DNA of 64,000 nucleotides from an uncultured candidatus Porisulfidus sp. (GTDB lineage Bacteria; Pseudomonadota; Gammaproteobacteria; Poriferisulfidales; Oxydemutatoraceae): positions 2,080,001 to 2,144,000 of the forward strand of contig OZ244052.1 of the NCBI GenBank assembly GCA_965215125.1, in the 5' to 3' direction. Positions 29,229 to 59,700 of the stretch are shown here, one piece after another (position 1 is the first letter of the stretch; each line of letters starts with the position of its first letter). The notes under the pieces are model-generated. The model worked only from the letters and a program-made list of their open reading frames with translations. It ran no database searches and was not told where the DNA came from. Position numbers and translations under genes: made by a program.

Positions 29229-29420
29229 CACAAAAAGAATGTCAATTTTGTATTTTGTAAATCAGGGTGCATTTTGTGCCATAGTATACTACATAAATAT
29301 ATATCGGGCTATGATAAGCACTCGCCCTGAAAGCCGCAATGTTTATGCAACCGCAGTGTGAACTACATGCATAGGGTGAGGGAAAAATAAAGCTCTCGGC
29401 TAAAGATTTCCGGCTGATGA

Positions 29421-29504
29421 TACCGAGGGTGGGACTCGAACCCACACGGGTTTAACCCCACTGGATTTTGAGTCCAGCGCGTCTACCTGTTTCGCCACCT
29501 CGGC
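29421..29504 (-). tRNA. tRNA-Leu (anticodon CAA)
   Basis: The reverse complement GCCGAGGTGGCGAAACAGGTAGACGCGCTGGACT-CAA-AATCCAGTGGGGTTAAACCCGTGTGGGTTCGAGTCCCACCCTCGGTA folds as a cloverleaf with a long variable arm. Confidence 0.95.
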
Positions 29505-29733
29505 AGCAAGGCTACATTATAGACTAATCTATCCTATCTATACGATGAACCGTAGGGCAACGCCGGCATGCATCTACCTATGCATTTATCTTATATCGAA
29601 TAAGCCGGATTTTGATACTTGCTCTCCCTGAAGTATCGTTATTACAGAAACCTAACCGCTTATGCTATCAAATTAAGGTTGCTATAAATCAAATGGATTC
29701 AATGTATATAAATGTGCCGAATTATCCATTAAA

Positions 29734-29780: not shown

Positions 29781-32700
29781 ATGAAATTATCGGATAATTT
29801 TTTACACATTATTATCGTCTCGTTTATGCTGTTCACAGGTGAGGCATTTTCCCAAGTTGGAGTTCGCGACAACGACCCTCGCGTATCCATCGTCTCGTCT
29901 TCTGTCGGAGGAGTCTACAAAGGCGATACCATACGATACACGATAAAGCTCAATGCCGTCACGAATCGCAACACTTCGGTTACTTTAGATATTAGGGAGA
30001 GCGGTAGTAGCGATCTCATAGACTCGCGATACGAAGGCATTAGGACAGTCGTCATTCCTGCCGGTAGTACCCGGACTACTCAAACAATCCCTACCAATAA
30101 TATCAGTCCCGGCAACAGGTTGGTTTTTAGTCGCGTTGATCTGCGCATAGCCGACCCGGAGGGAAGGGCGGTATATTCCATTGGTGAACCTGCTAGGCTA
30201 TCGCTTGCCATCGTCGACTCCGAGTGCGGTCACGCCGTCGATGCCGACATAGACGATGACGGCTTAATAGAAATTTGCGACTTAGAGGACTTGAATGCGA
30301 TCCGATATTCCCTAGACGGTAGCGGATACAGAGCGAACCGTACTGCGCCACTATTAAATCGGGGTTGCGACGAAGACGGCGACAACGGTGGCGTTTGCAG
30401 AGGCTACGAGCTCACAAGGAGTTTAGATTTTAACAAAGCAAGTAGCTATCGCTCGGGCCGCATAAACCGTGCATGGAGCGAAGACCTCGGCTGGCAACCG
30501 ATCGGAACAATTTCGGAATCCTTCTCGGGATATTTTGAGGCGAACGGTTTCTCGATTTCCAATCTCTATATCGACCGTCCGATCAAAACCGTCGGTTTAT
30601 TCCGGAGTATTGCGCCGTCGGCAACAATCAATGCGCTGACATTACTGCGCGTCGATGTCGAAGGTAGATCGGAGGTCGGTAGCTTGGTTGCCGTCAACGA
30701 AGGCATAGTTAGCAATATTAATGTAGTGAACGGTCGTGTAATCGGCACCATCGGCACCGTCGGTGGTTTGATCGGTGTCAACAAAGGCACCGTATTAACC
30801 ACGAATGTATTGTTGGACACGGTCGCCGGTGGTGTCTTTGAAAGACATTGTCGCAATAACCGAAGATCGAACGAATGTGCCGAGGCGGAGCAAGTTGAGA
30901 CGGTCCGAGACGGCGATACGGTTGGTGGTTTGATCGGCGATAACGACGGCGATGTAAGCGATAATTTTGTCTCCACCGATGTGCGGGGTGCGGAGCGTCT
31001 CGGTGGTTTGGTCGGTTTTAATTCCGGCCGCCTATTCGGTGGCAACGATGCCAGAGGCACCGTACGCGGCAACGGCTACGCAGGTGGATTGGTCGGTTAC
31101 ACTTTAAGTTCTATCACCGCCAATAAATCGAATGCCGATGTGACGGTAATCGGGAACTACGCAGGCGGTTTAGTCGGCTATGCGTGTTCACGCAAAATCA
31201 ATGCCCGAGAATGTATATCATCAAGAGGATTTATAGACCCCGCTCCGCAAACCCGTATCTCCGGTAGTTCGGCAAGTGGCAATGTCAACGGCGTTGAATA
31301 CATCGGCGGTTTGGTCGGGTTTAGTATCGCTAACACGATTGAAGAGAGTTATGCGAGTGGCGATATAGAGGGCAGTCACAATATAGGTGGTTTGGTCGGC
31401 AGTGCCGAGGACACCGCAATTGAAGAAAGTTATGCAAGCGGTGATATAGAAGGCAGTTATAACATAGGTGGTTTGGTCGGCAGTGCCGAGGATTCTGCAA
31501 TTGAAGAGAGTTATGCGATAGGTAATGTGCACGGTACCGCTTATAGCGTAGGCGGATTAGCCGGTTATATTTCCGGAGGCAATATTACTTTTAGCTATGC
31601 AACGGGTTCGGTTCTAGGAGACAATAGTACCGACCCCGACATAGACAACGATGTGAACAACGTCGGTGGTTTGATCGGCAGAGACGACCGAGCAAGGATC
31701 AGCAAAAGCTATGCCGACAACCCGCAAGTTTCCGGTGCCGATAAAGTGGGTGGTTTGATCGGTATTAAATTCGAGGGGTCGGTCAATGTCGCTTACGCGC
31801 GAAGCCCGGTACAGGGCATTAGTAGAGTCGGCGGATTGATCGGTGATAACAGCGGTTCCGTTGCCTTCGCTTATGCGAGCGGTAAACTGACGGCGAGCGG
31901 CGGCGATGTCGGTGGTTTAATCGGCTATATACCTCAAGGCAGAACCGGAATCGTCACCGATAGTTATTGGGATACCACCGAAACCGGCAGCGGATCCAGC
32001 CGTGGCGGCAGGGGCTTTGCCGACCTTAAAGCACCCACTGCGCCCGCTACGAATGCATCCGAAGTCTATTACCGATGGAGTACCGACGATTGGGATTTCG
32101 GCACCAACACCGAATACCCGGTACTCGAGCCCTCTGTCCGTATAGAGACTATAGCTGTCAACGGCTACACATTGGTTCCCGCATTTAATCCGGATGCGAG
32201 TAATTACTATGTAGTGGTAGGCGAGGATCCAAGCACGATTAGCATGAATGTTGCGGCAAGCGATGCCGATACCGAATTCACCGTTTCAAAAATCGACGAC
32301 AATAGTTCGGTGACGATAACCGGTAGCAATGACGACATACCGATCAACCTCAACGCCGCCCCCGCCACGACCGTGCTGAGCGTTGCCAATACCTATACGG
32401 TGAGAATCATTCGCAGTCTCAACGCGCAGATGACGATCAATGTGCCGAGTAAAGGAGTGGAAGAGGGTCAAAACATTCGCTTAAGTGTCGATAACAACAT
32501 CGAAAATCTTGTTCCCTTAATTTATACATGGAAGCAAATCTCCCCGAACAGCCCGTTATTGATGGGAGGTATAGATACCGGCATCACCGTAGCGCAACCG
32601 GAATTTAACATCGAGATACCCGGTAATTTCGTGCCGTCGGGACAAATCGCGCATGAACTACTACTGAGTGTAACGATAAGCGATGGATTCGGCAATACCG

Positions 32701-35700
32701 CCGTAGCATCCGAAAAGCTGGCTGTTATTAAGCTAAACAACGGCACTGCCGACAGCTTACCCCGTTTAGGGTTTATAGCAGATACCTCGATATTGCAATC
32801 ACCCGATGCCTTACAAATCATCGCCGCAGATCCGGACGGCGAAGCACTAAGCGATGCCGCTCAAAATCTTTTGTATCAATGGCAATTCAACGAAACGGGA
32901 ATCAGCGACTGGACCGACATAGACGACGCAAACGGTGCTGTTTTAGATATCGGCAAGCACGATGCACCGCATGCCCGTTATCGCCTGCGTATAAATTACC
33001 GAGACGGGCAGGGCTACGGTGATAGGCTGATATCGGCACCGACGATACCGATCGTCGATAAAGACCGCGACGGCTTGATAGAGATTTACTATTTGGAAGA
33101 CTTGAACGCAATCCGCTTTCAGGTAAACGGTAGCGGTTATAGAGCGAGTGCCGAGGATAAAAAAATAACCGGCGGCTGCCCCGATGCCGGCTGTATCGGC
33201 TACGAATTGGCACTAGACTTGGATTTTGAAGACGACAACAGCTATCGCAACCTCGCAAACAAAGCCGGATGGACGGTGTCCGACTTCAGCAATATACTCG
33301 ATAGAGGCTGGACGAACATATATCAAGGTACCATCGGATTCCCAAGCATCTTTGAAGGCAACGGCCACACCCTCTACAATCTACAAATGAATGTTACCGG
33401 CGGAACTACCGGTGTAAGTTTATTTGCTAATAATTCAGGTGTGATACGCAATTTCGGCATAGAAGATCTAAAGATAGGAGGTTTGGGAACAGCTCCCAGT
33501 ATTGCCGGTTTATCGGGGGATAATACCGGGAAGATTATTAATTGCTATGTACGAGGCGAAATCAACACCGGAAATGTTAATGTATTGGGTGGTCTTTCCG
33601 GAGGTAACACGGGGGGCGGAGAGATTATTAACAGCCATGCATCGCTGAATATTGTCTCTTCCGGGAATCATCGTTCTATATTAGGACGCGGTATCTTGGT
33701 CGGATATGCAGAAAGAAGTCGTATTATTAACAGCTATGCGACCGGCAAGCTCACCATAACCCGTCATACGGGTACCGGCGGCCTGGTCGGGACGGCTTTT
33801 AATAATTCGGAGATTATCAACAGTTATGCGATTGTGGATATTGTTTCAACCGCCGAAGTAACCGATAGTATAGGAGCATTAGTCGGAAGATTAAGAGGCA
33901 ATAACAACAAAATTATCAATAGCTATGCGATGGGTTCCGTCACATATATCGGTAATCTTGCGACCAATATCGGCGGTCTCGTCGGTTTCGTGGAAGGTAA
34001 TGGCACTATTCGCAACAGCTATTCGGTTGCCGAGGTCGTAACGAATTCAAGGTCTGCCACTACCGGAGGATTGATCGGTAGAAATAATTCCAATATGCCG
34101 ATCGTATCGAGCTATTGGGACACCATGACGAGCGGGCAGGCCGGCGGGCAGCCGGTGAACCGATTCGGCAGAGGCAAACCAACGACCGAGATGCAGCGAG
34201 GTAGCGCACAAAGTACCGATGCCAACGGAGTCTACCACAACTGGAACAATGAGAATTGGGATTTCGGTACCGCCCGGCAATACCCGGTTCTCAAATATAT
34301 CCCGCACCCCGCCCTAAGTGGCGAACCAACTTGCGATGCACCGGGATTGCCCGACTGCGGCACGCTCATCTCGCCGGCACTTCGCTACGGTTTAGAAAAC
34401 TTAGAAGCGGATATCGGAACTTTGAATCCCCCGTTCATTGCCGGAGGCTATTATTTAGGTGATGTTGAGATAGCCGATTTATCTACTCGGAGGATCCGCT
34501 TGATTGCCACCACCGTTGAAGACGATGCCGTCGTCAATATCTATGCTGCAGACGGTCAAACGCTATTGCAATCCGGTTTGCTCGGCGGTGAGCCCAGCAT
34601 GGCGTTTACATTCGCCGATGCCGAACCGACACGCCGTTTCGTGTTGGAAGTCAAAGGTAGCCGAACGATACGCCAGTCCGTTGCACTCACCCGTGTTGTT
34701 GCTCCGACACCGCCCGAGGTTTCCGGAGTAAAGGGATGTTCGGAATTAGCCGATTTCGCACAAGTCAGCTATTTGGAAGAGCTCAATGAGGTAAGAAATA
34801 ACCTAAGAGGCAAATATTGCTTGACCAGAAATTTGGATTTTCAAGACGATGCGAGCTATCTCGATCTGGACAACCGACAGACATGGACGGTGGATAATTT
34901 CGGCAACTCCGGCGATATCGGCTGGCAACCGATAGGGGGTGCTTTCAATGGCGTCTTCGACGGCAACGGTTATACGATCCGCAATCTGCAAATCAACCGG
35001 GATAATATCAGTCGCGTCGGCTTATTCAACGCTATAGGTACCGGCGGCACGGTTAGAAATCTGATCCTCGGAAATATTAGGGTTGAAGCGCATAGAACCG
35101 CAGTGCTATGGGCCGGCGGTCTGGCAGGTGATAACAACGGTACGATATTGAATAGCGGCATCATCGGTGGCAAGGTCGAAGGGGACGGCAGTGCTTCGGG
35201 ACAACCTAATTTCATAGGTGGCTTGGTTGGTAGGAATAACGGTGCCGGCGTTAACATCGGAGACATCTATAATAGTTTCGTGGTAGATACCGTAGTCGGC
35301 GTGATAACCGGCACCAACCCCGACAGTCATAACGTGGGTGGCTTGGTCGGCAGAAATATAAACGGTGGGGAGGTTCACAACAGCTATGCCGAGGTGGTCG
35401 CAAGAGGTTATTGCCATGTAGGCGGTTTGGTCGGTAATCAATTTACCAGTAATCGTGGTAATGCGGATACGATCAGTACGATTAGAAACAGCTATGCGGA
35501 TGTCACTTTAACAGCATTGAGCGGAACCTGTAGAATTGGTGAGGCGCGTGCTAAGTTGGTTGGTTTTAATAATGCTTCGGACATAATCAATAGTTATGCG
35601 AGAGGCACACCGGTAGGTACCGGTCTAATCGGTGGCCGCGTGGGTACTTTTGACATAACCAGAAGCTATTGGGATAGCGGGCCTTCTAATCTAGGAAATC

Positions 35701-38700
35701 TGAGTAGGTCGTCCGCGCAACTACGCTCACCGATCGGCCCGAATGCGACGAGCCCCGAGCTGTACACAAACTGGAGTACCGCCGATTGGGATTTCGGCAC
35801 CGATACGCAATACCCGATCCTAAAACATGCCTCGGGCCGCAACAACAATGCGTGTGGCAGCACAGTTACACCGGCTTGCGGCACGCTGATCTCGCCGCAA
35901 CAACGCTACGGTTTGAGTAGTCTTGTGTTGGCGGGTGCCGACACCTTATCTCCGGCGTTCGATCCCAATCTTCTGAAATACTCCGCTACCGTGACCAACG
36001 ACGACGACGGTATCATAAGATTGACTCCGACTATCAAAGGCACCGATGCCGTGTTCAGAGTTTACATCGACGACGACAAAGAACGGCCGAGATTCGATTT
36101 GAAAAATGGCGATTCTTCCAATGATATAACTTTAGTCCACGGCAACAACCGCATTATCGTGGAAGTGGACCCGCGAGTCTCCGGGGTTGAGGCATTCAGA
36201 TACACACTGGATTTGTATTCCCTAAGATACGGCGTGGAGGATTTGTACTCGTCGCGTATAAAGGACTCTCGCTCGTCTTTTATAGAGATAGATTCGCTGG
36301 AAGATCTCCATGCGATACGCGATAACCTCGGCGGTTCCTACAGATTGACCAGAGATTTGGATTTTCGCAACGACGCAAGCTACGACAACCCGACAATGAA
36401 TAAAGCCGCATGGACGGTAGACGATTTTGCCGACTCCGCCGATACCGGTTGGCAGCCGATAGGTGATACTTTCACCGGTACCTTTGACGGCAACGGTTAT
36501 ACGATATCCAACTTGCAGATGAATAGAGCTGCCGATAATCAAGGTTTATTTGCAAGTATCGGCAGTACCGGTGTCGTACGCAACCTAGGTCTCATCGGTG
36601 TAAATATAAATGGTGGTAGTTCCAACTCTATCGGTAGTTTGGTCGGCAACAATCGTGGTACTATCATCGCTAGCTATGCAGCCGGCAAAGTTTCCGGATC
36701 TCTTAGAGTCGGTGGCTTGGTCGGTAATCATATTGAAGGTTTGATTGCCAACAGCTACGCTGCCGTTAATGTTAGCGGTAGCCAATTTATCGGAGGATTG
36801 GTCGGTCGGAATACCGCACGTATCCTCAACAGTTATGCAATCGGCAAAGTTTCAGGATCCTCTAATTTCCATGGCTTGGTCGGTGTAAGATCCGTAGGCA
36901 GCAGCATTATCAATAGTGCAAGTGGTGCGGGTTCCATCGGCGCAACCTTTTCATATATCCAAAATTCCGTCGTCGGAAGCACGCTGACCTGCGGTGCTAT
37001 CGGTTTGCCGAACTGCGAAGATCCAATTGCACCGCAACTTCGCCACGGTCTACGAAATTTAACTCTAGAAACCGGTCGGATGTCGCCTGCGTTTAGAGTA
37101 AACCTTCCCCAATATGTAGGTGCCGTGAATGCCGAGGACAATGCGATTCGCCTGATACCGACCGCCCGCGACCCCGATGCCGACATCACTATCTATTTAA
37201 TAACCGATCAAGGCAGAACACAAATCGGCAATATAATCGGTAGCGGTGATACCGCTGCACCGATCCTGATAATGCACGACTCGGTCGCTCGTGTCGTCAT
37301 TGAAGTGGATCCGAGTACCGCCGATGCGCCGGTCGTACAATATCTGTTGCATCTACGACTCCTGCCGCCTACCGACATAGAGAATCTAGAAGACCTTTAC
37401 GCGATACGAGATAACCCCGACGGTATTTACAGATTGGCTAGACATCTAGATTTTCTGGATGCTGCCAGTTATCGCTCGGGGGTGGTCGGCACCGCATGGA
37501 CAGTGGACGATTTTGACAACTCCGCCGATACCGGTTGGCTTCCGATAGGCGATACTTTCAACGGTATCTTTGACGGCAACGGTTATACGATCCGCAATCT
37601 ACAAATCAACCGAGATAATACCGATCGCGTAGGCTTATTCGGAACTGTAGGAGCGGATGGCACGATTAAAAATCTAATCCTGAGAGATATTAGGGTTGAA
37701 GCACATAGAACCGGCGAGTTATATGCAGGTGGTTTGGTAGGTGATAACAACGGTATGATATTGAATAGCGGAGTTATCGGAGCCCAGGTTGAAGGAGCAG
37801 GCAGTGTTTCGGGAGAATCTAATTTGATAGGTGGCTTGGTCGGTAGAAATGACGGTAGTATTGCTAACATCGGAGATATCTATAACAGTTTTGTAGTAGA
37901 TGCCGAAGTCGGTGTTATAGAGGGAACCGCTCCCGACAGTCATAGCGTGGGTGGCTTGGTCGGTGGAAATATACACGGTGGAGAGATCCATAACAGCCAT
38001 ACCGAAGGAACCGTAAATGGTCATTGTCACTTAGGCGGTTTGGTCGGCAATCAATTTACCGCCGATCGTAGCGATGCGGACAGAATTAGTACGATTGAAA
38101 ACAGCTATGCGAATGTTACCTTAACACAACCGAGCGGAACCTGTAGAATTACCTTTGCGAGAGGTAAGTTAATTGGTTTGAATGATCGTTCGGACATAGC
38201 CAATAGTTATGCTAGGGGCTTACCGGGGAACGTAGGGCTAATTGGTTTGAGCATGAACGGTGGCACTTTATCCGACAGCTACTGGGATGCCGGGACTTCT
38301 AGTCAAGGAGGTATAAGCAGGACATCCACGCAACTCCAATCGCCGACCGATGCCCGTGGTATTTATGGGAATTGGAGTGCCGACAACTGGTATTTCGGCA
38401 CCGCAACCGAATATCCGACCCTCAAATATACACAAAATCCCGACGACCGCGGTTCACCGGCTTGCGACGGTGCCGGTTTGCCCGCTTGCGGTGATCGAAT
38501 CGTGCCACGGCTTCGTTATGTTTCGCTACGGGATTTAACCGTAGTAGACGGTGAATTGTTCCCCGTCTTCGATGCCGCCGACTACAGTTATTCGGGTATC
38601 GTAGCCTCCTCTGACGCTGTAATTCGCTTAAGCCCGGTTGCAAACGATCTCGCCGCCGAGATCAAGATCTATCTGGTAGACCGCACAGACAGAATGCAAC

Positions 38701-41700
38701 TCGGCAGGGTGATCGGTAGCGGCGACACCAGCGACCCGATTCGCTTAAACCGGTACAACAGCAATCATATCATCGTCGAAATAAGACCGAGTGCTTCCGG
38801 CGTGCCGGCTGTGGAATATCCGCTGTATTTGCAATACCGTCGTGCAAGTGAGATAGAATCACTGGAAGATCTCTATGCGATACGCAACAACCTCAACGGT
38901 GCCTACAGACTAAGCAAAAATCTAGATTTTGATGACGATGCGAGTTATCGCTTCCCGGAGTTCAAAGCCAACTGGACGGTGGACAATTATAACGATGCCG
39001 CCGATCTCGGCTGGATACCGATAGGCGATGAAACAAAGCCGTTTACCGGTAGTTTTGACGGCAACGGCTATACGATTTCCAATCTGCAAATCAATAACAA
39101 CGACGAAAGTATATACAAAGGCTTGTTTGGAGTCGTCGGCAGATCGGCGACGGTTCGCAATCTCGGCTTATTGGATGCCGAAATAGAAGTCATACAAGTT
39201 CGCGAGGGAGAAGATCTCTTTGTAAATCCCGGTGTCGGTGTCGGCACTTTGACGGGTAAGAATGACGGCACCGTCATCGACAGTTATGCGCACGGTGTAA
39301 TTCGCGGTGATGTAGGCCTGGGCGGGTTGGTTGGTTTCAACAGCCGCAGCGGCGAAATTCTCAATAGCTACGCGGTGTGTACTATTACGGCACGAGGTGT
39401 CGATATCGGTGGTTTAGTCGGCTATAGCGAAGGTCGTATAGGTAATAGCTATGCGGCGGGCATAATCACCGGCAGTTCCTTTAGGGTCGGTGGCTTGCTT
39501 GGTGTAGGACTCTCGGCTTCGGTTCTCTACAACAGTTATGCGGATAGTTTTATTTCAAGTATAGGTTCGGTCGGCGGCTTGATCGGCTTCGATGAAGAAG
39601 GAGGTGCCAGAGATGTTTATGCCTCCGGTATAGTTTCCGGAATTAGGGACGATACCGGTGGATTAGTGGGGGTTAGTGAAGCCGGTCGCTATATCAATAG
39701 TTACAGTATCAGCGAGGTTGCAGGCGGTGTCGAAGATGGCACAAACATCTCTCTCGAAGGTGGCTTGTTTTCTCGTACTAATCGTGCCACGATAGAAAAT
39801 AGCTACTTCGCTGATTCGTCTTTACCTATCGTAGTAGATTCACCTGAAGTTAACTTACGAAACATCAATTCCTCGGTATTCACCCCGGCCGAGTTGCGAG
39901 CCGCTACGGCTCAATCCACAAATGCAAGCGATGTTTATTACCGATGGAGCGATGATAACTGGGATTTCGGCGATACCACCCAATACCCGGTCCTCAGATA
40001 TGCTCCGAATGTCGGCGGTCGCACCACAGCGTGCGACGGCGACGGTTTGCCGAATTGCGGCGATGTGATACCGCGCCGTGCGTTAAGTGCATTGCGCATA
40101 GTGGACGGTAAAGGTCGCTTTGATTCATTTGTTTTTGACCCTCGCTATCGGTTCCATAGCGGTGTGATAGAAAGCAGTACCGATATGACACAACTGGTTG
40201 CGGTTGCCGCAAGCACCGATGCCCGAATTACCTTCGTCTCCTTTGACACATCGGGCAACGAGACCGGGCGTAGTACACCGATGCGTAGCGGTCGCGAAGG
40301 CGTGCTTAGCGCAGATATTAGCTTGAGTGAAACCGAGGCGACTCACGTTGCGATAGAAGTGATCACTCCCGGCAGCGTCGATCGGTATCATTTATCGCTA
40401 CGCTATCGGCATATTCCGGTGGATCAAGACGATAATTTTTATACCAAAATCGATACGCTGGATGATCTCAATGCGATACGCAATAACCTTGACGGTTCTT
40501 ACCTATTGACCAGACATTTGGATTTCAACGACGATGCGAGCTATCGCAACCCCTCGTTCAAAAACTCTTGGACGGTGGCGGACTTTGCCGACAATGCCGA
40601 TTTCGGCTGGATACCGATAGGCAGTACCAACAACGGGTTTACCGGTACCTTTGACGGCAACGGTTATACGATCTCGGGCTTGCAAATCAACCGAGACAAC
40701 TCAAGTAATCAAGGTTTATTCGCTTTTATCGGCGACAACGGTATTGTGCGCGACCTCGGTCTGCTTGATGTGAAAATAGATGCCGGCAACACGGTCGGCG
40801 CACTGGCGGCTAACAGCCGAGGCACAATCATCGGCAGTTTTGTAGTCGGCGAGATAACTGCTAGGGGAATTTATGCAGGCGGTTTGGTCGGCTTGGCACA
40901 GTCTGCAACCGACTATATTATAAATAGTTATGCGGTGGTTAATATAGAAGCGGTCGGTAGCGGAGCCAAATCCGGTTATGGTGGCTTGGTAGGCGTTTCT
41001 CTGGGCGACACGAGGATTATTAACAGCTTTGCGCATGGCACAATCGTCGGCAGCATTGACGATGCGGGCGGTCTATTTGGGAGTACTTTTTTAAGTTCTA
41101 GAGTAAAAACAATCCAAAATAGCTATGCAACCGTTGATATTAGAGCGAATAACAAAGCCGGGGGACTCGTAGGATTATCCGCTGCGAATGACTCAATCGT
41201 CAATAGCTATGCGACCGGTTCGGTGCATGCCGATACGAATGTGGGAGGTGGTTTAGTCGGTTCCATAGAAGGGGACACATTCTTTAACAATGTGGTTGAT
41301 AAGAGCTATGCGATATCCGGAGTGACGGGTGGCAGCAACCTCGGTGGTTTGATCGGTGCCACTAGCGGCACCCGTGTCACCGTTGACAACAGCTATTGGG
41401 ATATCCAAACCAACAGACTGGATACGAGTGCCGGCGGCACCGGCAGAACTACGACGGAACTGCAATCGCCGATCACCAATAGCGGTATTTATTCCAGCTG
41501 GAGTACCGCCGACTGGGATTTCGGCAATGCTAGGCAATACCCGATCCTCAAATACACCCAAAATTCCGAGACCGGCGATGCTAGAGCTTGCGATGGCGAC
41601 GGTCTGCCGAACTGTGGCAATCCGATCTCACCACAAATTCGCAATGGTCTGAAAGATTTAACTCTAGCGGGTGGTGTCGAGTTATCCCCACCTTTCGGTA

Positions 41701-47700: not shown

Positions 47701-50700
47701 ATCATTTGATCGCATATTCCGACACCGACCGAGTGCGCTTGACTACGACCGCGACCGATCCTTTGGGTTTCGTACCGAGTATTGAGATTACTGCCGATAA
47801 CGGTTTATCGCCGGTAGTACTGGAAGGTGTCGGCGTCGCAGAGGTGGTATTGAACCCCGACGCTGTGACCGAGATCACGGTCGTTGTAAGTGGTCAGCAG
47901 CGTTACCGTTTTGAATATCGCATCGTCGTAGAACGCCTCCCCTTCAGGAGCCGTTTGGACGGTAGCAACCTTATAGACAAAGACGGCAACGGTTTGATAG
48001 AGATCGACTATTTGGAACAGTTGGATGCGATGCGATACGGTTTGGACGGTCGCGGATATAGTTATGCGGTAGAGACAACCACGACCCTGATTAAGATAAA
48101 CAGCGGTTGTCCTGCCGGGGGTTGTCGCGGCTATGAATTAACCAAAGATTTAAGTTTTCTTGATGACGCAAGCTATATAGATGCACAGCGTGCGATGCCG
48201 TTGTGGACCGAAGGCACAGGTTGGCAGCCGATAGGCGATTTTAGCAATCCGTTCACCGCCGAGTTCATCGCCGACGGATACACGATATCGGGTCTGAGAA
48301 TCAATCGGCGCAATACCGACAATATCGGTCTATTCGGAGTAGTCTCAAATGCGAAGATTAGGGGTATCGGTGTATTGAATGCGGAACTTAGAGGAGCGAG
48401 TAATGTCGGTATTCTGGCCGGTAGTAGCCGAGAAAGTAGTAATATCATCAATAGTTATGCAACCGGTACGGTGCGCGCCGTGAATAACGGTGGTGGTTTG
48501 ATCGGGGTTTATCAAGGCAACATCGTTCACAGCCATGCCAATGTCTCGGTTGAAGTCAATGCCACCGCCGGTGGTTTGGTCGGTGAATTATTGCCCGGGA
48601 ATATCCGTAAGAGTCATGTGTCCGGTGCAGTATATTCGTTTTCCGGTATTGCCGGCGGTTTGGTGGGTGAGGTTGAAAACGCCACGATTTCGGATAGTTA
48701 TGCGACTGCTACGATCAACGCGAGTAGAAGTGGCGGCTTGGTGGGTTCGGTGACCTCGCACAGTCCGGAGGCGGTAGGTGTACGGATTAACAACAGCTAC
48801 GCGATCGGGGTAAATCGCTCCGCTCAAAGTGCCGGTTTGGTTCTCAATGTGTTAAATGTGCCGATCGAAGTCAACTACAGCTATTGGGATGTAGATACCA
48901 GCGGAGTTCGCAACGGTCTCGGTGGCACGAGCAGAACCACCGTTGAACTGCAATCTACGACAACCGAGATCTACAATAACTGGCGTTCCGAGATATGGGA
49001 TTTCGGCAATAATATGCAGTACCCGAGGCTCAAATACACGACTGCCACCGATACACTCGGTAGTCCTCCGATATGCCGTTCCGCTTCGGATATATCGTCG
49101 CGGTTACCGGTGTGCGATGAATTGCTACCCGATCAGTATATCGGTTTGACCGATTTGGTATTCTCGAGCGAGGTTTTGCAGCTGATCCCGGCGTTTAACT
49201 CGAACATATACGACTACACACTGGTGCTAAAAGCCGACGAGACCGGATTCCACACTACGCCGACTTATGTCGGGACTGTGTATCGCCTATCGGTGGATAA
49301 TAATGATTTGGGCAACCTTGCCAGCGGCACGGCATCGTCGCGTATCCCGGTTACTGCTTCGGGCAGTACGAGGATCGAGCTCGGAAAAGGTGGTGTAGTC
49401 TACACCTTCACCGCGTTGCGTCATCCGTATTTGAGGATAAACGATATGGATGTAGACGACGACGGTTTGATAGAAATACGCAACCGCACGGAGTTGGATG
49501 CGATGCGCTATCAACCGGATGGTAGCGGCTACAGATCACCTACGGTAAACGAAAAAATTAGCGTAGGATGTCCGCCTGTTACCGGTTGTGTCGGGTACGA
49601 ACTGGCGGCGAGCATCGACCTTTCCGGTGCCGATTGGGATCCGGTAGGAAGAATTAACCCTGCAACACTAGATTGTAGCGATGGGAACAGTCGATGCTTT
49701 GCGGCGATCTTTGACGGCAATCGGGCATTGGGCTACGAGATTTCCGGTTTAAGCATTGCCACCCCGAACAGAGATAATGTCGGGCTATTCGCACATTTGA
49801 GTGCCGATGCCGAGATCCTAAACCTCACTTTGTCCGATGTGTCGGTCGCCGGTTGGGGCGGTGTCGGTGCTTTGGCGGGTTATAACGCCGGTATCGTTCG
49901 CAATGTACAGGTCGCCGGCGAGGTTGACGGAGAAAGCGATGTCGGTGGCGTTATCGGTTATAACGTCGGTCGTTTATCGAGTGTTCGTGCCGACCCGATT
50001 AGAGTTGTCGGTAATAATATCGAAGGCGGCTACGGCGAGCTGATCGGCGGTTTGGTCGGTCGCAGTTTAGGTGGTTCTATCGTGGACAGTGGTGCTACGG
50101 GCGAAGTGATAGGCAGGGCTTTTGTCGGCGGTTTAGTCGGTGAGAGCGACGGTTTGATTGAGGGGAGTTTTGCCGATGCTGTGGTGATCGACACCGGTGC
50201 GAGCGATGGCGAAAGCTACGCCATTGGTGGCTTGGTCGGCTATAACACCGATAAGATATACAATAGTTATGCGGGTGGGTCGGTGTCGGGCAGTAGCAGT
50301 GTCGGAGGCTTGGTCGGAATCAATTATCAAAGTTTCAACAACGAAGGGCGCATAGTTAACAGCTATGCGATCGGGTCGGTATTGGGCATCAATGCGATCG
50401 GCGGCTTGGTCGGTCGCAACGAGCATAACGGCAAAGTATCGGCAAGCTATGCGCTGGGTGAAGTATCGGGCGATGTCCGCGTCGGTGGCTTGGTCGGCTT
50501 GAATTTCGGTACACTGGTGAATACGTATGCAACCGGTGCCACCAACTCAAAACAGAAAGTCGGTGGCTTGGTCGGCGACAATTTGAATACAAGCGACAGG
50601 AGCATCGTCAATAGTTATGCTATCGGACGAGTGAGCGATGTAAGCGAGTCCGGCGGCTTGGTCGGTTTTAATCTTCGTTACTCGGATATACGTAGCATTA

Positions 50701-53700
50701 GACATAGCTACTGGAATCTAGAGACCGCCGGCGTGATAGATAGCCGCCTCGGCATCGGTCAAACGACGGTAGCACTGCTAACACCGACCGCTGCGACCGG
50801 CATCTATGCGAATTGGGATACAAACCTATGGGATTTCGGCACCTCCGAACACTATCCACAACTGCGGTATGGACGAGGAGACGATAGCGACAACCCGGCG
50901 TGCGGCGGTGGCGGGCAGCCGACTTGCGGTAGCGTACGGAGCTACGGATTGAGCGACCTACAAGTTCTCGGAAGCGTGCTGTTCTCGCCGCGATTTACAA
51001 CCCCTAGACTGCGCTATCGTATCGCTGCGTATGTTGAGTTGTCCGGTTCGCTGCGTCTGATACCACACGCAACGGATCCTGACTCGATGATTACGATCGC
51101 TTATAACGGAAACGAGATAAATGTTGCCGACGGTGCCGTCAGCGATCCGATCGTACTCAACCCCGGCGTTGACGATGCGATTATCGTGTCGGTTAGAAAT
51201 ACCGGAGGTACCATTGAATATATTTTAGAGATAGATTATTCCGGCTTTGATAGCGATAGAATTTTAGCCGATTCCGACGGCGACGGTCTGATAGAAATTA
51301 CGACATTGGATGACCTGTATGCGGTACGCTATGGTCTAGACGGCAGTGCATACATCCATATACTACCCGATGGTGAGTTATTGCCTATCGCTGAAGGATG
51401 TCCGACCACTCCGACCGTCGGTTGCAAAGGCTACGAACTGACGCGAGACTTGGACTTTCGCGATGCCGCAAGCTATCGCTCGGGTGTGGTCAATACCAAG
51501 TGGGCGGATAATTGGAATCCTATAGGAGACGACGATAATCAATTCAATGCCGTGTTCGATGGTAATGGATATTACCTTCGCAATTTGAGTTTGCGCGGTA
51601 CTAGAACTAAAGACGCAATCGGATTGTTCCACACCTTAGGTCGGAATGCTGAAGTTAAGAATCTACGCTTGCGAGGCGTTAATATCTACGATGTAATCGG
51701 GCGTGCCTTTAATAGCAGGAGAGCGGAGAAGCAAGGGAGTTTGGCGGGCGAGAACCGTGGTCGCATATACGATGTCGGTGTAAGTGATATCACCGCACTG
51801 GTAGGCTCCAGCTATAATCGGCGTGCGCTTAAGCAAAGTCGCTTCGGTGGTCTGGTCGGTGTCAATAGAGGTGGTGAGATTAGTCATAGCTTTGCACAGG
51901 TCTATATCTATTCGTTTTCTCCTCACAGTGGTATTTTTGGGGACATCGTAGGTGGCTTGGTCGGCAGGAATGATAGAGGTGCGAAGATTAAAAATAGCTA
52001 TGCGACCGGCGCGATAAGCGGGCATTGTCGGCTCGGTGGCTTGGTCGGGGAGCATGTCTCGGCAAACCGCAACACCGCAGAGAATATCAGCACGATCGAG
52101 AACAGCTATGCAAGGGTCAACACGAATAAGGTATTGAATGTAAAATGCATTGATGAAGTTTTCAATGTTGAAGGATTTGTCCAAGGGTTCGGTGGTTTGG
52201 TCGGCTTTATGGATCAAGCCGATATCGTCAACAGCTATGCGGCAGCGCGCCAGTCGGGAGGTGTTTTAGGTTTGATCGGGCGGGTGCGTGGCACCGCCTC
52301 CGCTGCAAACAGCTATTGGGATAATATCCTTAACGATAAACAATCTGCTTCTACAGGTGTCGGTGAAACCACCGCATTCGGTGGTCAAACCACCGCCGTG
52401 CTACAAGGGACGACGACGACAATCGGTATTTATGCAAGTTGGAACAGTGACGATTGGGATTTCGGCACCGACGAGCAATATCCGACACTGAAGGCTGCCG
52501 ACGGTAGTATCGCAATGCAAATACTGGATGATTCGTTGGTGCGTAATGTAGAAGTGAGAAATGCCGTAATAGCCAAAATAAACGATATAACCAGAGATTT
52601 TAATCATAGTAGAAATAGTAACAGATACGCGATTTATGTAGACAGTACTCGATTACCGTTAGCGATTACATTCATCACCACACCGACCGTTCCCGGTTTG
52701 GAGACTACACTTTATTGTGGCGATGTGCGATGTCCGCTTGTCGGCATCGGTGACACGCTGATGTTGGGTCATTCGGATATACAAGAAATCACACTGGCGG
52801 CCGGAGCGGGCAATCGGGTTATGAGATATTATTTTGATATAGTCCGCGAAGATCTAACATTGGATAATGTTACTACGATCAACCTGAAAGAAGGTGACAC
52901 CTTCACGGTCAGCGGGGACTACGCCGGCAATTCGGATATAAATTGGTCGCAAATCGCCGGCCCGACTATAGGCATTGCCGATGCAAATAGCTTGAACCTT
53001 AAATTGATACCGCAAGTCAATCTGATCGCTAATGATTCCGAACACAGCGATGTTCGGTTTAGGTTGGCAGTCTCGGTTGACGATAAAAACGGCAACCCTC
53101 AAGTTTATCTCGGCAGAGAGATATCGGCGCGTATCAACAAAGTGAATAACGGACCGATAACGGGAGATATTACACTGGCACTGAATAACGACAAAATTAC
53201 CGTAACCGAAAACCTGAGCGATATTGACGGTAGCCTTACTAATGCAGTGAGACAATTCCAACGACGTTCTATAGGCGGCAACTGGGCTGATACAAATTTA
53301 ACCGGGAGTGGTCTGGAGTATACGGCACCCCGCGAAGCCATAGACTATCAATATCGTTTAATCGGTACCTATATAGACGGGCAAGGTTACCGAGACCCTG
53401 TCGTATCCAATACGATTATCGTTCCTGCGATATCTATTTCTCTCCTCTCGGATACCGACAATGATTCGGTTGCAAATGACGACGACATAGACGACGACAA
53501 CGACGGTTTGATAGAGATTCGGTATTTGGAAGATCTAAATGCCATCCGCTATCAGTTGGACGGCAGCGGCTATAGGGCGAGTGCGAGTGCCGATCTGAAC
53601 ACTCGCGGTTGCCCGAACACCGGATGCTTCGGCTACGAGTTGACTAGGAATCTCAATTTCACCGCTGCGGGTGCCTATCGCTCGGGGGTGGTGAATGGCG

Positions 53701-56700
53701 CGTGGACGGTAAGCGACGGCCAATTCACTACTACCGCCGAGGGTTGGCAACCTATAGGTGGCGCGTTCAATGCGACATTCAACGGCAATGGTTATTTTAT
53801 TGCCCGCATGTCTATAAGCCGTAGCAGTGTCGGCACTAGATCGAATGTCGGTTTGTTTTCCGAGATTGGTGCAAACGGCAAGATTGAAAACTTAGTTATT
53901 GATTTTCCTGCTATCAAAGGTTTGGCGGGGGTTAAAAATGTCGGCAGTATCACCGGGTTGTTGCGGCGCGGCGGTGTGATCCGAAATAGTGATGTGTACG
54001 GTACTAGAGATGCCGGTTCATCGTTGCGTGTAATACGCACCGATCGAGGTTCGGTAGGCGGCTTGGTTGGTGTCAACGAAGGTTATATACTCAACAGTGG
54101 CGCACGAATTAATGTGAGTGTACAGGACTCCGACAGTACTATCTCGAATAACGGTAATGTGACCGTAGGCGGCTTGGTCGGTAGGAATCGCAACGGCGGG
54201 AGGATCCACAATAGCTTTTATGCAAGGGGCGAGATAGTCGGGCATTGCATCGCCGGTGGTTTAGTCGGCTCTCAGGAGACCGCCGGGGGTAGTGGTGATG
54301 CAATCAGTGAGATCAAAAATAGCTATGTGTTTCACGATAGCCGCGTGTTAATGAGGAATGCTTCATGTACGACACGATATCTCGGTGGTTTGGTCGGTAG
54401 ACACCTTAACGGAAAGTCAATCATTGCCGATAGCTATGCCGGTGGTAGAGCTTATGCGCTGTCATTAACGCCCGGAGGAGGATCTCAATGTAATGGACAA
54501 GGGAGTTTTGGTAGGATAGCCAACGTTCAAGCACAAACCGATATCCGTATAGCCGGCTTGCTAAACTATACCCCCGGAACAGATAGAGTACCCACGAATA
54601 GCTATTGGAGGCGCGAGCCTTACGCATGTGTCCAATCAGTACCTGTTTTCGGTGCTTTCGTTCCTATTGATACGCTTGCCGTGACGCAAGCAGATATCGG
54701 TAATAGAAGATCAGAGAATAATTTAAGGAATCCTACAGCCCCCTGCCTTTCCTCGAGTTGCACGACTTATGAAGATTGGAATGCCGATGACTGGGATTTC
54801 GGCACCGATGCCCAGTACGCACTGCTCAGATATACCGAAGGCACGAACAGCGCAGACCCCGCCTGCGACTTTAACGATCGCACACCGTTGCCGAGGTGTG
54901 GTGCGTTTTTGTCCGGGCAGCCGAACAGGAATTTGGTGTCTCCACGCTTACCTACACTTTCGGTAATCCCGCCGCAGGCGGTGATCGGGTATACGCTAAA
55001 CGGGGTTAGTTCGGTACTGAATACGCTAAACACCCTAACATTGAACGAAGGGGACACGCTGAGCTTAGATGCCGGAAACAGCTTTTCCTCGGACACTGCG
55101 GCATTGAATTATAGATGGAAACAAACGAGCGGTCCCGAACTATTATCGGGAACGAATGCGAAATCGATGATTCGTTTCAATGTACGCAATGATTTGTTGC
55201 CTATGGCTACGGATCGCGGGCGAGCGATTATCAGATTGGAAGTCTTAAAGAGAGATAATCCCGGTTTATCGGCGTTTGAGTATATAACGATAAACATAAT
55301 AAAAACCAACCGTATCGGCAGTGGCTCGGTCTACTGGGTGGATACCTCTCTTATTGCACCCACCGAAATTATTGATGCCGACGGCACTCCCATTACCGAT
55401 ATCGGATATCAATGGCAACGCAGGATGAGCGGTAGTTTGGTTGATATTGCCGAAGAAACCGAAGCAATTTATAGAGTACCCGACAATGCGGTGAACGGCG
55501 AATATCGGTTGAAGCTCAGCTATACCGACGGGCAAGGTTATGCCGACACTATATTCATTTCTGCACCAACGTATTCACCCACCAGGACGGTGGATACCGA
55601 TGCAGACGGTTTGATAGACATCTTCTATATCGAGCAGTTGAACGCGATCCGTTATCAGCTCGGCGGAACCTCTTATAAAGCGAGTATGAATGCCACGCCG
55701 AATACTAAAGGCTGTCCGAGCGGTAGCTGTAAGGGCTACGAATTGCTTAGAGACCTGGATTTTGACGAACCCGACAGTTATAGCAATACTGCAAGCAATG
55801 TTGTGGAACGGTGGAACGATTGGGATCCGATAGGGACTGTCGTAAACAGGCATCAAGGTTTTTGCTCGGGATCCAATCAATGTTTCACGGGTATTTTCGA
55901 AGGCAACGAATATACGATTTCCAATATAAGAATACGAGATGGCGCATTTAGTACTGGTGTAGGCTTTTTTGCCGCGGTAAGCGGAACTGCCGAGATCAGG
56001 CGAGTACGCATGGCAAAGGTTGATGTACTCGGTGGTTTTGCAGTCGGTACATTGGTCGGAGGTTTTGCCGGTGGTAAAATTATCGACAGCCACGTACTGA
56101 GCGGTCTTGTTAGAGCTAATCGTGAGGACGGAGGGTGTTTGGTAGGCGAGGTACGCGGGACGAATGTAGAGATCAGCAATAGTTCTGCGCGCTGTGACCT
56201 AATCGGTTCTGTTAGGTTAGGTGGCTTAGTCGGTATGGGAAATCCCACAATCAGCAATAGTTTTGCGACCGGTACTATGAAACTTGAATTTAATAACGAG
56301 CGCGGTGAAGAGATTGGCTACGGCGGATTGATCGGTGTTTTAACGCAATCCGGGAGCATTGAAAATAGTTCTTCTACGATGAGTATAACAACCGAAGCAG
56401 CAAGGCAGAATTCTTCGGGATTCGAACATGGGCTCGGTGGCTTGGCCGGTATCACTAAAACCAACACATCGATTAAAAATAGTTATGCAACCGGTGATAT
56501 GACCGCACGTCGACCTAATTTCAATAATATCAGAGTCGGTGGTTTGGTCGGCATCTCGGTAAGCGATATTAGCGGTAGTTATGCGACGGGTAATGTGAAC
56601 CGATTTGGAAATGATGTAATTAATATCATGGGTGGTTTGGTAGGTGAGAACAAAGGAGCGATTAGCGATAGCTATGCAACCGGAAATGTGCGCGGGAACG

Positions 56701-59700
56701 ATAAGATCGGCGGTTTGGTCGGCGTGAACGAAGGCACCGTCAATAATAGTTATGCCATCGGCGATGTTACGGGAGGACTAAGTATCGGTGGTTTGGCCGG
56801 CGAAATGAGCGGGAATATCTCTAATAGTCATGCGACCGGAAAAATATCTATAAATGCCGGTAATAACATCACACTAAGGGCAGGTGGCTTAATCGGAGAT
56901 ATCAGGACTGGTACTGTTAGTAATAGCTATGCATCGGGCATTTTGAGTACCTCAGCCTCGAATGGGGCTGGTTTGGGTGGCTTGGTCGGCTATAATAACG
57001 ATCCCGGTACCATCAATAACAGCTATGCAGCGGTTTCATTTCGTGCGGCCGGAGCAAATAGAGGTGGTTTAGTCGGTAGTAATGTGAGCGGAAATGGAAT
57101 TAGCAACAGCTATTCCATCTCCGAAGGTTTAAGCGACATACGCGGTAGAGGGCTCGTAAACTTTAATATCGGGAGATCACAACGAAGTTATTGGGATATT
57201 GACCGTAGCGGTCAATTTTCCGATGGTAGTGGCGGTACACTCGGCTTTAGTTCCGAAATCTTAAAATTGATGTCGGTACCGGGTGTAAATAGGCACCCGT
57301 ATATCAACTGGAGTACCGAGCATTGGGATTCCGGCACCACCGAACAATACCCTGCAATCAGATATCACGATAGCACTTGTAGCACCAACACGCCGTCTGC
57401 GAATTGTAGAAATATACTACCGCGGCAACGCTTAGGCTTACGAGATTTACGGTTCACGCAAATTGGCGGAAGGAGGCAGTTGCAAATTTCTCCTTCCTTC
57501 AACAATGCGGTAATCAAGAACGATTTCGATCGGGAGGCTATCGAGAACTATACCGTATTAGTAGACAGCAAAACTTCCGGAATTGAAATTTCCGCAACTG
57601 CGTCCGATCCCGCCGGCATGATTACGATAAACGGTTCGTCGATGTCGGTGGGTTCGGCGAACTATGTTTTGGTCCCCGATTTTCCCGATGCAATGACCCT
57701 AAACATATCGGTATCGCAACCCTACGAGATAACCGGCAAAGAAAATCTGGATGTGGAATATCATTTGACTCTCGGTACTTTCCCCGAGATAAATACTATC
57801 ACTCGCAACGCTGCGGAGAATGAACACGCGCAATCGTTAAGTGATTCGGTGCCGATAAGAGAAGGCCATTTCATAACCTTGACCGGCAGATTTATAGACC
57901 TGGACGGCGACGATTTACGCTATGAATGGACGGTCGATGAAACGCAAGTATCGCTTTTAGACCGCGCTGCGCTCAACGGAGTCGTGGCCGGCGGTTCGGG
58001 CAACGCCGCACTTTCGTTCTATCTGCGCGAAGATTTCATCGCCGCCGATCGATCCTCCGAGACGGTGCGTGCATCGCTGACAGTGAGCGATTCCGACGGA
58101 TCAACTGTGGTTAGGGAACAATCATTCGTCGTCGTCAAGTACGATAACGGTACGATAGACGGCATTAGCACCCCGACGCGGATAGGCTTAATTTATACCG
58201 CACCGGCACTCGATCGCGTGCAGTTGGCGGAGGACCCCGACGGTGCCGGCAACCCGAATGACATTCGCTACCGATGGCAGCAGCAATTGGATGGTAGCTG
58301 GTCCGATGTCGTCAATGGGAGTCTCGGAAGCTATACTATCGGTGGTGCGATTGCCGATTATTACAGAGTAGTACTGAACTACAGCGACGGACAAGGTTAC
58401 CGCAAGGATATCGTGTCCGCGCCGGTGCCGGCATCGCCCGAGTTTGTACGGGAAGTGATACCTACTTCCGAAGGCGGCAGCCTTGAGGTATTTCTGGACG
58501 CGGCCGGTTTAACACCCGAATTTCAAAGAACACGAGAGGAATACGATGTACCCTCCGACACCGATAGCGTTGATATCGTGGTGATTTCGCGTAGCGATGC
58601 GGTCTATGTCAACAATATGCGTATTCAAGGAAGGGTAACAACGGCAGATTTAGATTATGGCGATAATAAGATTATTGTTGAGTTGCGAGGTGAGGATAGT
58701 AGCACCCGAAGCTATACGATTTACCGAGCGTACGATGTTTCGCTACATCGCTGGGGTGTTGCATGGCAAGGGGTTTCCCCTCAAACTTTAGATTTTCTCG
58801 GCACCGATCTAGAACCGGATCCGCCGGTACGAATTTCCAATGATGTAGATTCGATCACGGTGACCGCAAGAGTGAACGAGTTGATAGATATAACCATTCG
58901 CTCGGCAGGGAGTACGGTCGGTTCTATCACGACCTCAACTCAAGCGGATGAACTGGTCGCACAAGCGAAGATTAGCGATTTAGCCTTAGGCGAGCATAGT
59001 ATCGAGTTTTTGCTGACCTCTCCCGACCGACGAAGCACCGCCTCACATATCGTAAAAGTATGGCGTAGATATAGCAGTCGGTTGAAGAATTTATCCGTAG
59101 TTGGCATGCAGCCGTCGATATTTAATCCCGAAAGATTGGAATATTTTGTGTCTATACCCAATCATTGGGAGGCTTTAAATTTGAACTTTGAAACGAACGA
59201 AAGGGCAACGCTTTTCGTACAAGGTGCGAGCATATCGGGAGGATCAACCGTTGCCACTAATCTTAGAATCGGTAGAAATACCGTTCCGATCAGGGTGACG
59301 GCACCGCGTGAACAGGATACTATTTACACGATTATCGTCATGCGTCGATACAATTTGGATTTGCGCAGTTTGAGTCTGACCGATTTGCAGATGACCCCGG
59401 TCGCGTTGTCGCCGGCATTTGCTTCTACAAGACACACTTATACCGCAGTAGTCGCCGCTGAAACATCGCGGGTTACGGTGACATTCGCAACCGACTTGGA
59501 GCTAAGATCCTCGGTCAAGGCACCCGGCCCGGTAACCGTCAACGAAAAAACGATACAAAATAATGATCCCGACGATCGGATAGAGAAAACTACATCGATA
59601 CCGCTGAGCTTCGGTGAAAATACTATAGTAATCGAGACATCGGCATTAGGACAACGACAGGCTACCACACTTACGGTTACTCGTCTTAGAAGTAGTAATG

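Follow-up and report, generated by a model that had tools for sequence, protein, structure and literature searches.

Within a 64,000-nt stretch of contig OZ244052.1 (positions 2,080,001 to 2,144,000; hereafter the window) from an uncultured Candidatus Porisulfidus sp., we found one giant gene whose visible product carries 16 tandem modules with a predicted beta-solenoid fold, followed by a stalk of beta-sandwich domains. This protein belongs, as a very large member, to an abundant family that is annotated but uncharacterised and is built of known domains. We propose that it is probably an exported, multivalent adhesin or coat fibre stabilised by Ca2+ and by disulfides. The array had been noticed in an initial annotation made from the sequence alone, which described about 16 self-contained head modules at 30230..57430, strung like beads and proposed to differ in what they bind.

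The giant open reading frame (ORF; plus strand, 29754/29781..63998) holds the whole module region in a single frame. This frame is open from a TTG at 29754 and runs for 11,415 codons to the last base of the window with zero stops, leaving its 3' end open at the window edge. As 3 of the 64 codons are stops, the chance of a stop-free frame of this length is about 1e-238. The 16 module copies, of 250-630 amino acids (aa) each, occupy aa 165-9220 (nt 30246-57413), in agreement with the initial annotation, and pattern counts recovered the motifs it had quoted at their places in one ORF. Hidden Markov models (HMMs) that we built from the caps in the window found 16 N-terminal caps (N-caps) and 15 C-terminal caps (C-caps), module 4 being without the WDFG cap. 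FDGNGY-type N-cap anchors also number 16, and the 16 matches to W[DYH][FS]G comprise the 15 C-cap anchors and the SYWD of module 3 (aa 1973), with none in module 4. The internal truncation of module 4 leaves the reading frame intact. At the start of the modules we counted ten strict D-x-[DN]-x-[DN]-G-[LFIV] loops and a variant, DGDDGF, in module 11; modules 3-7 have no loop. Across the protein, the looser pattern D.[DN].[DN]G has 11 matches, ten of them at the first module column, and a composition estimate gives about two expected by chance. The remaining landmarks recur in most copies, with nine CxGYEL Cys insertions, 12 SYW[DNR]/SYFD motifs, ten [LQ]PxC[GDE] motifs and a C-x(3-12)-C pair after 13 of the 15 C-caps.

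Sequence and structure comparisons both point to the GLUG beta-helix family, as the initial annotation had proposed. The Pfam GLUG model (PF07581, cut-off 20.5 bits) scores 127, 128.1 and 76.8 bits in the three thirds of the protein, and PF05342 (Peptidase_M26_N, cut-off 27.7) scores 37.5 bits in the first third and falls below its cut-off in the second. With the 16 modules serving as the alignment, AlphaFold2 modelled module 8 as an all-beta solenoid of about ten rungs (pLDDT, the predicted local distance difference test, 91.8; pTM, the predicted template modelling score, 0.91). Module 16 was predicted as a single continuous, longer solenoid over residues 1 to ~490, with a mean pLDDT of 79 and a divergent C-cap that is poorly predicted. 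In a Foldseek search of the PDB, the top match to module 8 was 3n6z (BACOVA_03286 of B. ovatus; E 1.4e-6, template modelling (TM) scores 0.47/0.53), followed by chains of IgA1 proteases including 7uvk, 7uvl, 6xjb and 6xja; five chains reached E <=1.1e-3. Module 16 returned the same two groups, 3n6z and the IgA1 metalloproteases of S. pneumoniae and G. haemolysans, and neither module had any other significant PDB match. A sequence profile of the 16 modules matched 3n6z at E 1e-16, including a weak match over the W..W..G..YP C-cap, and 3n6z and the IgA1-protease chains together at E 1e-16 to 1e-14. A protein atlas search returned only look-alikes of GLUG and M26_N. Together the models and matches support folding of the modules as beta-solenoids of the GLUG family, each predicted to be independent of its neighbours.

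Between the modules lie domains of a second type. Our own beta-sandwich HMM places a cadherin-like spacer of ~95 aa after 12 of the 16 modules and finds 29 matches in the protein, interleaved with the modules and in tandem; it has no match after modules 8, 14 and 15. Pfam PF12733 (Cadherin-like, cut-off 24.2 bits) gives 43 bits in the first third of the protein, 45 in the second and 411, over 17 stretches, in the last third (the last 3406 aa), where the domains form the stalk. Four copies of an Ig/PKD-like domain ending in Y-x-DGQGY were also seen. Copies 1-3 stand <=40 aa upstream of the canonical DxDxDG modules 2, 15 and 16, and copy 4 precedes the stalk. K319L-like_PKD has a sub-threshold match in the linker between modules 15 and 16 (aa 8429-8469, ~nt 55038-55160), upstream of the Ig/PKD-like copy located there.

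Several features of the protein suggest that it leaves the cytoplasm. Judged by eye, its N-terminus looks like a Sec signal peptide, and a similar start is present in many of the 45 best relatives (first 45 residues) and in five genomic gene starts. Export is also suggested because the protein has 84 Cys, nearly all in pairs 4-13 residues apart, because its net charge is -367, and because the DxDxDG loop is present in 666 of 761 homologue N-caps. The closely spaced Cys pairs in the caps would be expected to form disulfides. By analogy with the giant RTX adhesins, in which Ca2+ stiffens the junctions between Ig-like domains, the DxDxDG loop, judged by its motif, would most likely bind Ca2+ at the junction of spacer and helix and stiffen it.

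We assessed how the modules arose from their identities and from a maximum-likelihood tree of 91 modules from 13 proteins, including 15 window modules. The tree took in modules of <=800 aa with both caps whose N-cap match began no later than HMM position 15; this excluded module 4, which lacks a C-cap. Since the 15 window modules require 14 label changes in this tree, 3 and 5 are the only sisters among them. Values of 97-100 in the Shimodaira-Hasegawa-like approximate likelihood ratio test (SH-aLRT) support the pairing of modules 7, 9 and 11-16 with modules from other proteins, and modules 1, 10, 12, 13, 15 and 16 group, in the same order, with modules 1, 5, 7, 8, 10 and 11 of two database proteins, P0001 and P0004. 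One clade unites the short-type modules (3-9 and 14), and its expansion took place independently in several lineages. Colinearity is extensive in pairwise comparisons as well: database protein P0106 aligns with the window protein at 59% identity over window aa 6769-11103 in one alignment, and P0065, P0035 and P0019 are colinear at 47%, 44% and 40%. Modules 11-16 share 49-58% identity with their counterparts in colinear proteins, as against 28-39% with the closest module in the window protein itself. DNA identity between the module copies is 60-85%, so they are neither a repeat artefact of assembly nor recent duplicates. On this range and the tree together, we rejected an origin of the modules by recent duplication or gene conversion. 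Identity and branching order thus show, at the level of sequence, that the modules are old, position-specific orthologues rather than recent copies.

Within the modules, change is concentrated in the cores. In 26 of 29 comparisons between orthologues, conservation is higher in the N-cap than in the core, and lengths differ (604 aa for module 16 and 354-600 aa in its orthologues; 628 and 469-496 aa for module 1). Across 52 rungs, the arc from NSYA to GGLVG takes insertions (standard deviation of length 7.2), whereas the arc from GGLVG to NSYA is nearly fixed (2.6); one insertion-rich arc per rung is what a variable edge would look like. Variable residues, placed in rung register at the sequence level, are spread over the whole rung. 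Modules 10 and 11 retain no strict GGLVG and have kept their caps. These observations refine the earlier picture of the array. That caps are conserved while cores diverge holds for length (116-415 aa for cores, 123-160 aa for N-caps) and only weakly for identity among paralogues (N-cap 42%, C-cap 36%, and core 36% with 57% alignable). The modules are self-contained in that they are predicted to fold independently; the beads-on-a-string description overlooked the spacers, and modules 8 and 9, only 13 aa apart, abut. As an array, the modules are non-redundant, each being closer to an orthologue than to a paralogue; the C-terminal stalk, the probable signal peptide and the commonness of such proteins in public data had been missed. 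Overall, the interpretation in the initial annotation is partly supported.

Relatives of the protein are abundant. A profile search of 1.84 billion cluster representatives matched the module in 109,649 representatives at E<=1e-3 and in 34,781 at E<=1e-30; the best 150 of the 109,649 range from 1,333 to 7,822 aa in length and match the profile over many stretches. We counted caps in these best 150 proteins, two cluster members and the window protein. With 16 N-caps the window protein has the most of the 153 compared, the others having <=15 (median 6). A locus scan with one genome per species and a 6-module alignment as the query returned at least 65 loci. Among the matches listed, the highest identities to module 8 (up to 60%) come from metagenome-assembled genomes (MAGs) recorded as Ca. 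Porisulfidus and Ca. Oxydemutatoraceae, with at least nine loci per genome; next come Dehalococcoidia and Chloroflexota MAGs, and then a scatter of Firmicutes, Planctomycetes, Bacteroidota, Cyanobacteria-related and archaeal genomes. In many related loci a single ORF fills the whole 21 kb fetched without a break, and in some, giant genes stand in tandem. In loci L009 and L013 a second giant gene begins 350 to 2,300 nt after the first, with its own signal peptide and a near-identical first module (SAQD..C.Y..D[IV]DQD.DGLIE). For L006, L007 and L010 only such giant-gene starts were seen; all five loci are from MAGs recorded as Ca. Porisulfidus / Ca. Oxydemutatoraceae. The nearest relatives of the window's transketolase are 90%, 82% and 80% identical and include contigs that carry the giant proteins P0001 and P0002/P0009; other Gammaproteobacteria are at ~65%.

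The relatives also indicate how such proteins end. A C-terminal tail of the form ...(I/V)R(I/V)RxKVFLEG(P/L)L(R/Q), for example ...GIRIRTKVFLEGPLR, is shared by 48 of 152 relatives, including P0001, P0002, P0004, P0005, P0008 and P0009, and it is the true end of the ORF in loci L009:3-7166 and L013:1-5193. The tail has no transmembrane helix and is covered by no Pfam or NCBIfam model, and no secretion or anchor domains were found in homologues by Pfam (13 proteins) or NCBIfam (6 proteins). This conserved KVFLEGPLR-type tail may be a new sorting or secretion signal. In many homologues the Y-x-DGQGY domain stands before the tail, and in a homologue the YTDGQGY domain has a weak NCBIfam match to the ZirU family.

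These results suggest a model wherein the visible protein would be the N-terminal ~11,400 residues of an exported fibre of a small-genome gammaproteobacterium. A Sec-type signal peptide would move the protein out of the cytoplasm, where the Cys pairs in both caps would become disulfides and where Ca2+ bound by DxDxDG would stiffen the junction between each helix and its preceding spacer, as in the giant RTX adhesins. The sixteen GLUG-type modules, each with its own N-cap (LxAIR helix, LDF, WxPIG, FDGNGYTISNL) and C-cap (SYWD, WDFGxxxQYP) and spaced by ~95-aa beta-sandwiches, would form the heads, and the beta-sandwich stalk presumably joins them to the cell through the end beyond the window. 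The heads could then act as non-catalytic interaction surfaces, as does the IgA1-contacting helix of the IgA1 proteases, where the NTD2 beta-helix is described in a passage of PMC9637739 as a non-catalytic gate that moves on IgA1 binding. Such a multivalent adhesin or coat might attach to host matrix or to other cells. Host association is suggested by the position of the closest loci in MAGs recorded as Ca. Porisulfidus and Ca. Oxydemutatoraceae, by a Porisulfidus MAG reported alongside a sponge genome (in an excerpt of PMC12988363) and by the enrichment of cadherin-domain genes in sponge-associated MAGs (stated in part of PMC8163846); for GLUG proteins of a gut archaeon, an adhesion role is suggested in an extract from PMC9723798.

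A number of points weigh against this interpretation. The C-terminus, and hence any anchor or secretion signal, lies beyond the window end; secretion-system genes were not found in the 29 kb upstream of the gene; and a protein of >11,000 aa would have to pass the outer membrane of a Gram-negative cell. Modules 3-7 do without the DxDxDG loop, so Ca2+ is not needed for the fold, and Pfam EF-hand_1 matched two of 11 loops at E 0.03-0.04, both below the cut-off. The faster evolution of the cores relative to the N-caps could mean relaxed constraint rather than binding. The source names of relatives describe a domain only ('cadherin-like beta sandwich domain-containing protein' in Chromatiales/Gammaproteobacteria MAGs, e.g. 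MBC6414695.1), host association would come from the records of those relatives and not from the window, and PF12733 differs from the true cadherin domain treated in PMC8163846.

If the protein is an exported fibre, its heads could each have their own ligand specificity, forming a fixed panel of binding domains on a constant scaffold. We consider this narrower version possible and hold it tentatively. It would account for paralogues that have diverged to 28-39% identity while each keeps a closer positional orthologue (49-58%), for the recurrence of this orthology, with SH-aLRT of 97-100, across at least three further proteins and in an order colinear with P0001 and P0004, for the gathering of insertions in one arc of the rung, and for the loss of GGLVG from modules 10 and 11 with their caps kept. 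However, any position-dependent structural role would also retain diverged paralogues, and a core that is the least conserved part in most orthologue comparisons and changes in length is odd for a fixed specificity; at the sequence level, variable residues are also spread over the whole rung.

A second version of the exported fibre, which we find doubtful, is a bulk coat or mucin-like envelope, that is, a space-filling, hydrated and protease-resistant layer without specific ligands that would protect or mask the cell, a role also proposed for halomucin. Faster evolving, length-plastic cores would fit such a role as well as they fit diversified binding, and the extreme size of the protein (a gene of >=34 kb), its strong acidity and the abundance of paralogous giant genes in each related genome, with some of them in tandem, are in line with it. 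According to a figure legend of PMC4330952, a halomucin homologue region holds a coding sequence (CDS) annotated with the GLUG motif. Against a mere filler, the 16 modules are conserved by position over a long divergence, which exceeds what filler would need, and heads on a stalk are the layout of an adhesin.

Going further, the heads could be a fixed, ordered panel of different receptors, conserved in position between species, with which a small-genome symbiont would engage several host-matrix or cell-surface ligands simultaneously, the protein being exported by an undescribed route marked by the (I/V)R(I/V)RxKVFLEGPL(R/Q) tail. This combination, read from sequence patterns, is unlikely as a whole; if true, a receptor panel with its own sorting signal would be a new class of multi-headed Gram-negative adhesin.

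That the beta-helices are instead an array of enzymes, working as polysaccharide lyases, hydrolases, epimerases or a protease on a host or biofilm matrix, appears very improbable. PL, GH28 and AlgE enzymes and phage tailspikes are built on right-handed beta-helices, and some of them are among the remote Foldseek matches; the nearest solved relatives are parts of proteases. Yet the remote matches (lyases, GH28, tailspikes, autotransporter adhesins) have E >=0.037, a probability mostly <=0.44 and TM <=0.31. HExxH is absent from the visible 11,415 aa, which have no Pfam match to the M26 catalytic domain, and NCBIfam ZmpA, whose cut-off is 3000 bits, reaches 27.7 and matches the helix alone. The invariant or near-invariant residues of the modules are structural Gly, Leu, Trp, Phe, Tyr, Asn and Ser, with no invariant acidic or basic residue in the core. 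On the Pfam, NCBIfam, Foldseek and motif evidence we set the enzyme reading aside as a leading idea. Finally, although repetitive genes are often mis-assembled and several database relatives are fragments with frameshifted ends, an artefact of collapsed repeats or a decaying pseudogene has a negligible chance given the 11,415 stop-free codons, repeat copies just 60-85% identical in DNA, end-to-end colinearity with independent assemblies and a purifying pattern of conserved caps and structural residues.

Table 1. Features of the giant gene in the window (all on the plus strand; spacers assigned by our own HMM unless stated)
Feature	Position (nt)	Residues (aa)	Remarks
Giant ORF, likely ATG start	29781..63998		>=11,406 aa from ATG; continues beyond window end
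Signal-peptide-like N-terminus MKLSDNFLHIIIVSFMLFTGEAFSQ	29781..29855		short charged start, 13-residue hydrophobic core, A-F-S before Q; read by eye
Module 1	30246..32138	165-795	core ~415 aa; DxDxDG and CxnCxGYEL; ends at WDFG cap without Cys knot
Beta-sandwich spacer after module 1	32145..32405		own HMM E 4e-16; PF12733 below threshold, 17 bits
Ig/PKD-like domain ending ...YRDGQGY, directly before module 2	32751..33053		by motif; boundaries approximate
Module 2	33057..34364	1102-1537	canonical: DxDxDG, Cys insertion, WDFG, Cys knot
Beta-sandwich spacer after module 2	34386..34676
Module 3	34740..35885	1663-2044	short N-cap type without DxDxDG; 60% identity to module 5
Beta-sandwich spacer after module 3	35907..36203		site of best PF12733 stretch
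Module 4	36276..37022	2175-2423	truncated: N-cap and few rungs, then Cys knot; without SYWD/WDFG cap
Beta-sandwich spacer after module 4	37044..37343
Module 5	37368..38495	2539-2914	short type
Beta-sandwich spacer after module 5	38520..38819
Module 6	38844..40064	3031-3437	short type
Beta-sandwich spacer after module 6	40077..40388
Module 7	40443..41621	3564-3956	short type
Beta-sandwich spacer after module 7	41643..41957
Module 8	42000..43175	4083-4474	DxDxDG, without Cys insertion; predicted beta-solenoid, pLDDT 91.8
Module 9	43215..44372	4488-4873	13 aa after module 8, no spacer between
Beta-sandwich spacer after module 9	44391..44684
Module 10	44721..45797	4990-5348	canonical caps; degenerate rungs, no strict GGLVG
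Beta-sandwich spacer after module 10	45816..46109		own HMM, Pfam
Module 11	46158..47363	5469-5870	loop variant DGDDGF; degenerate rungs; extended Cys-rich C-cap
Two beta-sandwich spacers after module 11	47316..47918	5855-5947 and 5962-6055
Module 12	47976..49124	6075-6457	canonical
Beta-sandwich spacer after module 12	49140..49403
Module 13	49449..50933	6566-7060	canonical; core ~267 aa
Beta-sandwich spacer after module 13	50943..51221
Module 14	51270..52499	7173-7582	canonical N-cap; without Cys knot after WDFG
Three further Ig/PKD-like domains (Y-x-DGQGY end)	~53121-53429, ~55266-55577, ~58131-58439		by motif
Module 15	53490..54905	7913-8384	canonical; 58% identity to P0106 orthologue
Module 16	55593..57413	8614-9220	core ~365 aa; single long solenoid in the model, with a poorly predicted C-cap
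Beta-sandwich domain after module 16	57432..57716
C-terminal stalk, tandem cadherin-like beta-sandwiches	58479..63998	from ~9576	runs past window end; 14 own-HMM matches; Pfam PF12733

The 29 kb upstream of the giant gene are housekeeping (tkt, gap, pgk, pyk, class-I fba, mgtE, ptsP, rapZ, hprK, hpf, thrC, hom, surE, pcm, moeA). A cluster at 14135-19139 (+) comprises hpf, a PTS-EIIA(Ntr)-like gene, HPr kinase, rapZ, an EIIA-man-like gene and ptsP; HPr kinase/phosphorylase is encoded here in an apparent gammaproteobacterium. Among the housekeeping genes are a transposase-like gene of the PD-(D/E)XK family (688-1680, +), a short N6/N4 DNA methylase ORF (3614-4327, +) and a short sulfotransferase-like ORF (20528-21052, -). 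Between the transketolase gene and the giant gene's start lies a tRNA-Leu(CAA) gene (29419-29505, -). Islands often insert at tRNA genes, but the GC content of the giant gene, 0.48-0.52, is not distinct from its flanks. The window neighbours tkt, pgk, pyk, fba, mgtE and ptsP were found on none of the 65 related loci fetched, which gave one unrelated gap match (L045).

At >=34 kb this one gene takes up >=1.5% of a contig of 2,220,706 nt, and related genomes hold many such genes. The cost of such giant genes suggests a strong selective value, most plausibly in contact with a host or between cells. At 28 residues, the Pfam GLUG motif is far shorter than the complete module (Ca-loop, N-cap, variable GLUG rungs, WDFG cap and Cys knot), of which we found no description among the papers listed on GLUG and beta-helix proteins; the literature on giant genes in symbionts offered analogues and nothing on this protein family. 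A definition of the module would improve the annotation of >100,000 protein clusters. The modules are also compact, well-predicted domains suited to ligand tests, and they offer protein engineering a natural series of solenoids of varied length on identical caps.

Judged by sequence, the multi-headed, position-conserved layout appears to be matched by no characterised adhesin that we found. BACOVA_03286 (3n6z) and the NTD2 of M26 IgA1 proteases (6xja, 6xjb, 7uvk, 7uvl) share the repeat motif and fold (Foldseek E 1e-6 to 1e-5, probability 1.0), and 3n6z has the N-cap FDGxGxxIxN and the C-terminal W..W..G..YP of the window modules. The DxDxDG loop, Cys insertion and Cys knot lie outside the aligned part of the solved structures, where the alignment begins at profile position 82. 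These proteins have one helix each, in contrast to the 16 here, and the metalloprotease, G5 and LPXTG parts of the IgA1 proteases have no counterpart in the window protein: neither LPxTG nor G5 was found in its visible part by motif scan and Pfam.

Giant adhesins of the RTX/type I secretion system (T1SS) class, such as LapA, SiiE and MpIBP, are likewise long fibres of tandem Ig-like domains with interaction domains and a Ca2+-dependent stiffness. To our knowledge, they lack a Sec signal peptide, have a retention module at the N-terminus, carry their ligand-binding domains close to the C-terminus and contain RTX repeats. Unlike them, the window protein has a signal-peptide-like N-terminus, as read by eye, and its heads lie towards the N-terminus; the RTX repeat GGxGxDxUx has no match in the visible 11,415 aa, the C-terminus being beyond the window, and Pfam LapA reached just E 0.06. 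Giant1-4 of Apilactobacillus kunkeei, considered here together with the SRRP adhesins, are extracellular symbiont proteins of 3,000-8,000 aa with an N-terminal beta-solenoid head, a long rod and adjacent paralogues, and for them too an adhesin role is inferred (both from an excerpt of PMC12863079). As described there, A. kunkeei has one SRRP-type head and an alpha-helical rod in a Gram-positive cell, whereas the window protein combines 16 heads of the GLUG type with beta-sandwich spacers and comes from a Gram-negative lineage. An SRRP structure, 5nxk, was a remote Foldseek match (E 0.55). Halomucin of Haloquadratum walsbyi is reportedly a giant secreted archaeal protein with a proposed coat function, and we liken it to the window protein by description, not by sequence. 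True members of the family are the proteins from Chromatiales/Gammaproteobacteria MAGs and the giant ORFs in MAGs recorded as Ca. Porisulfidus and Ca. Oxydemutatoraceae, which have the same full module, spacers and signal peptide and include colinear orthologues at 40-59% identity; among these relatives the window protein has the most modules, 16 against <=15.

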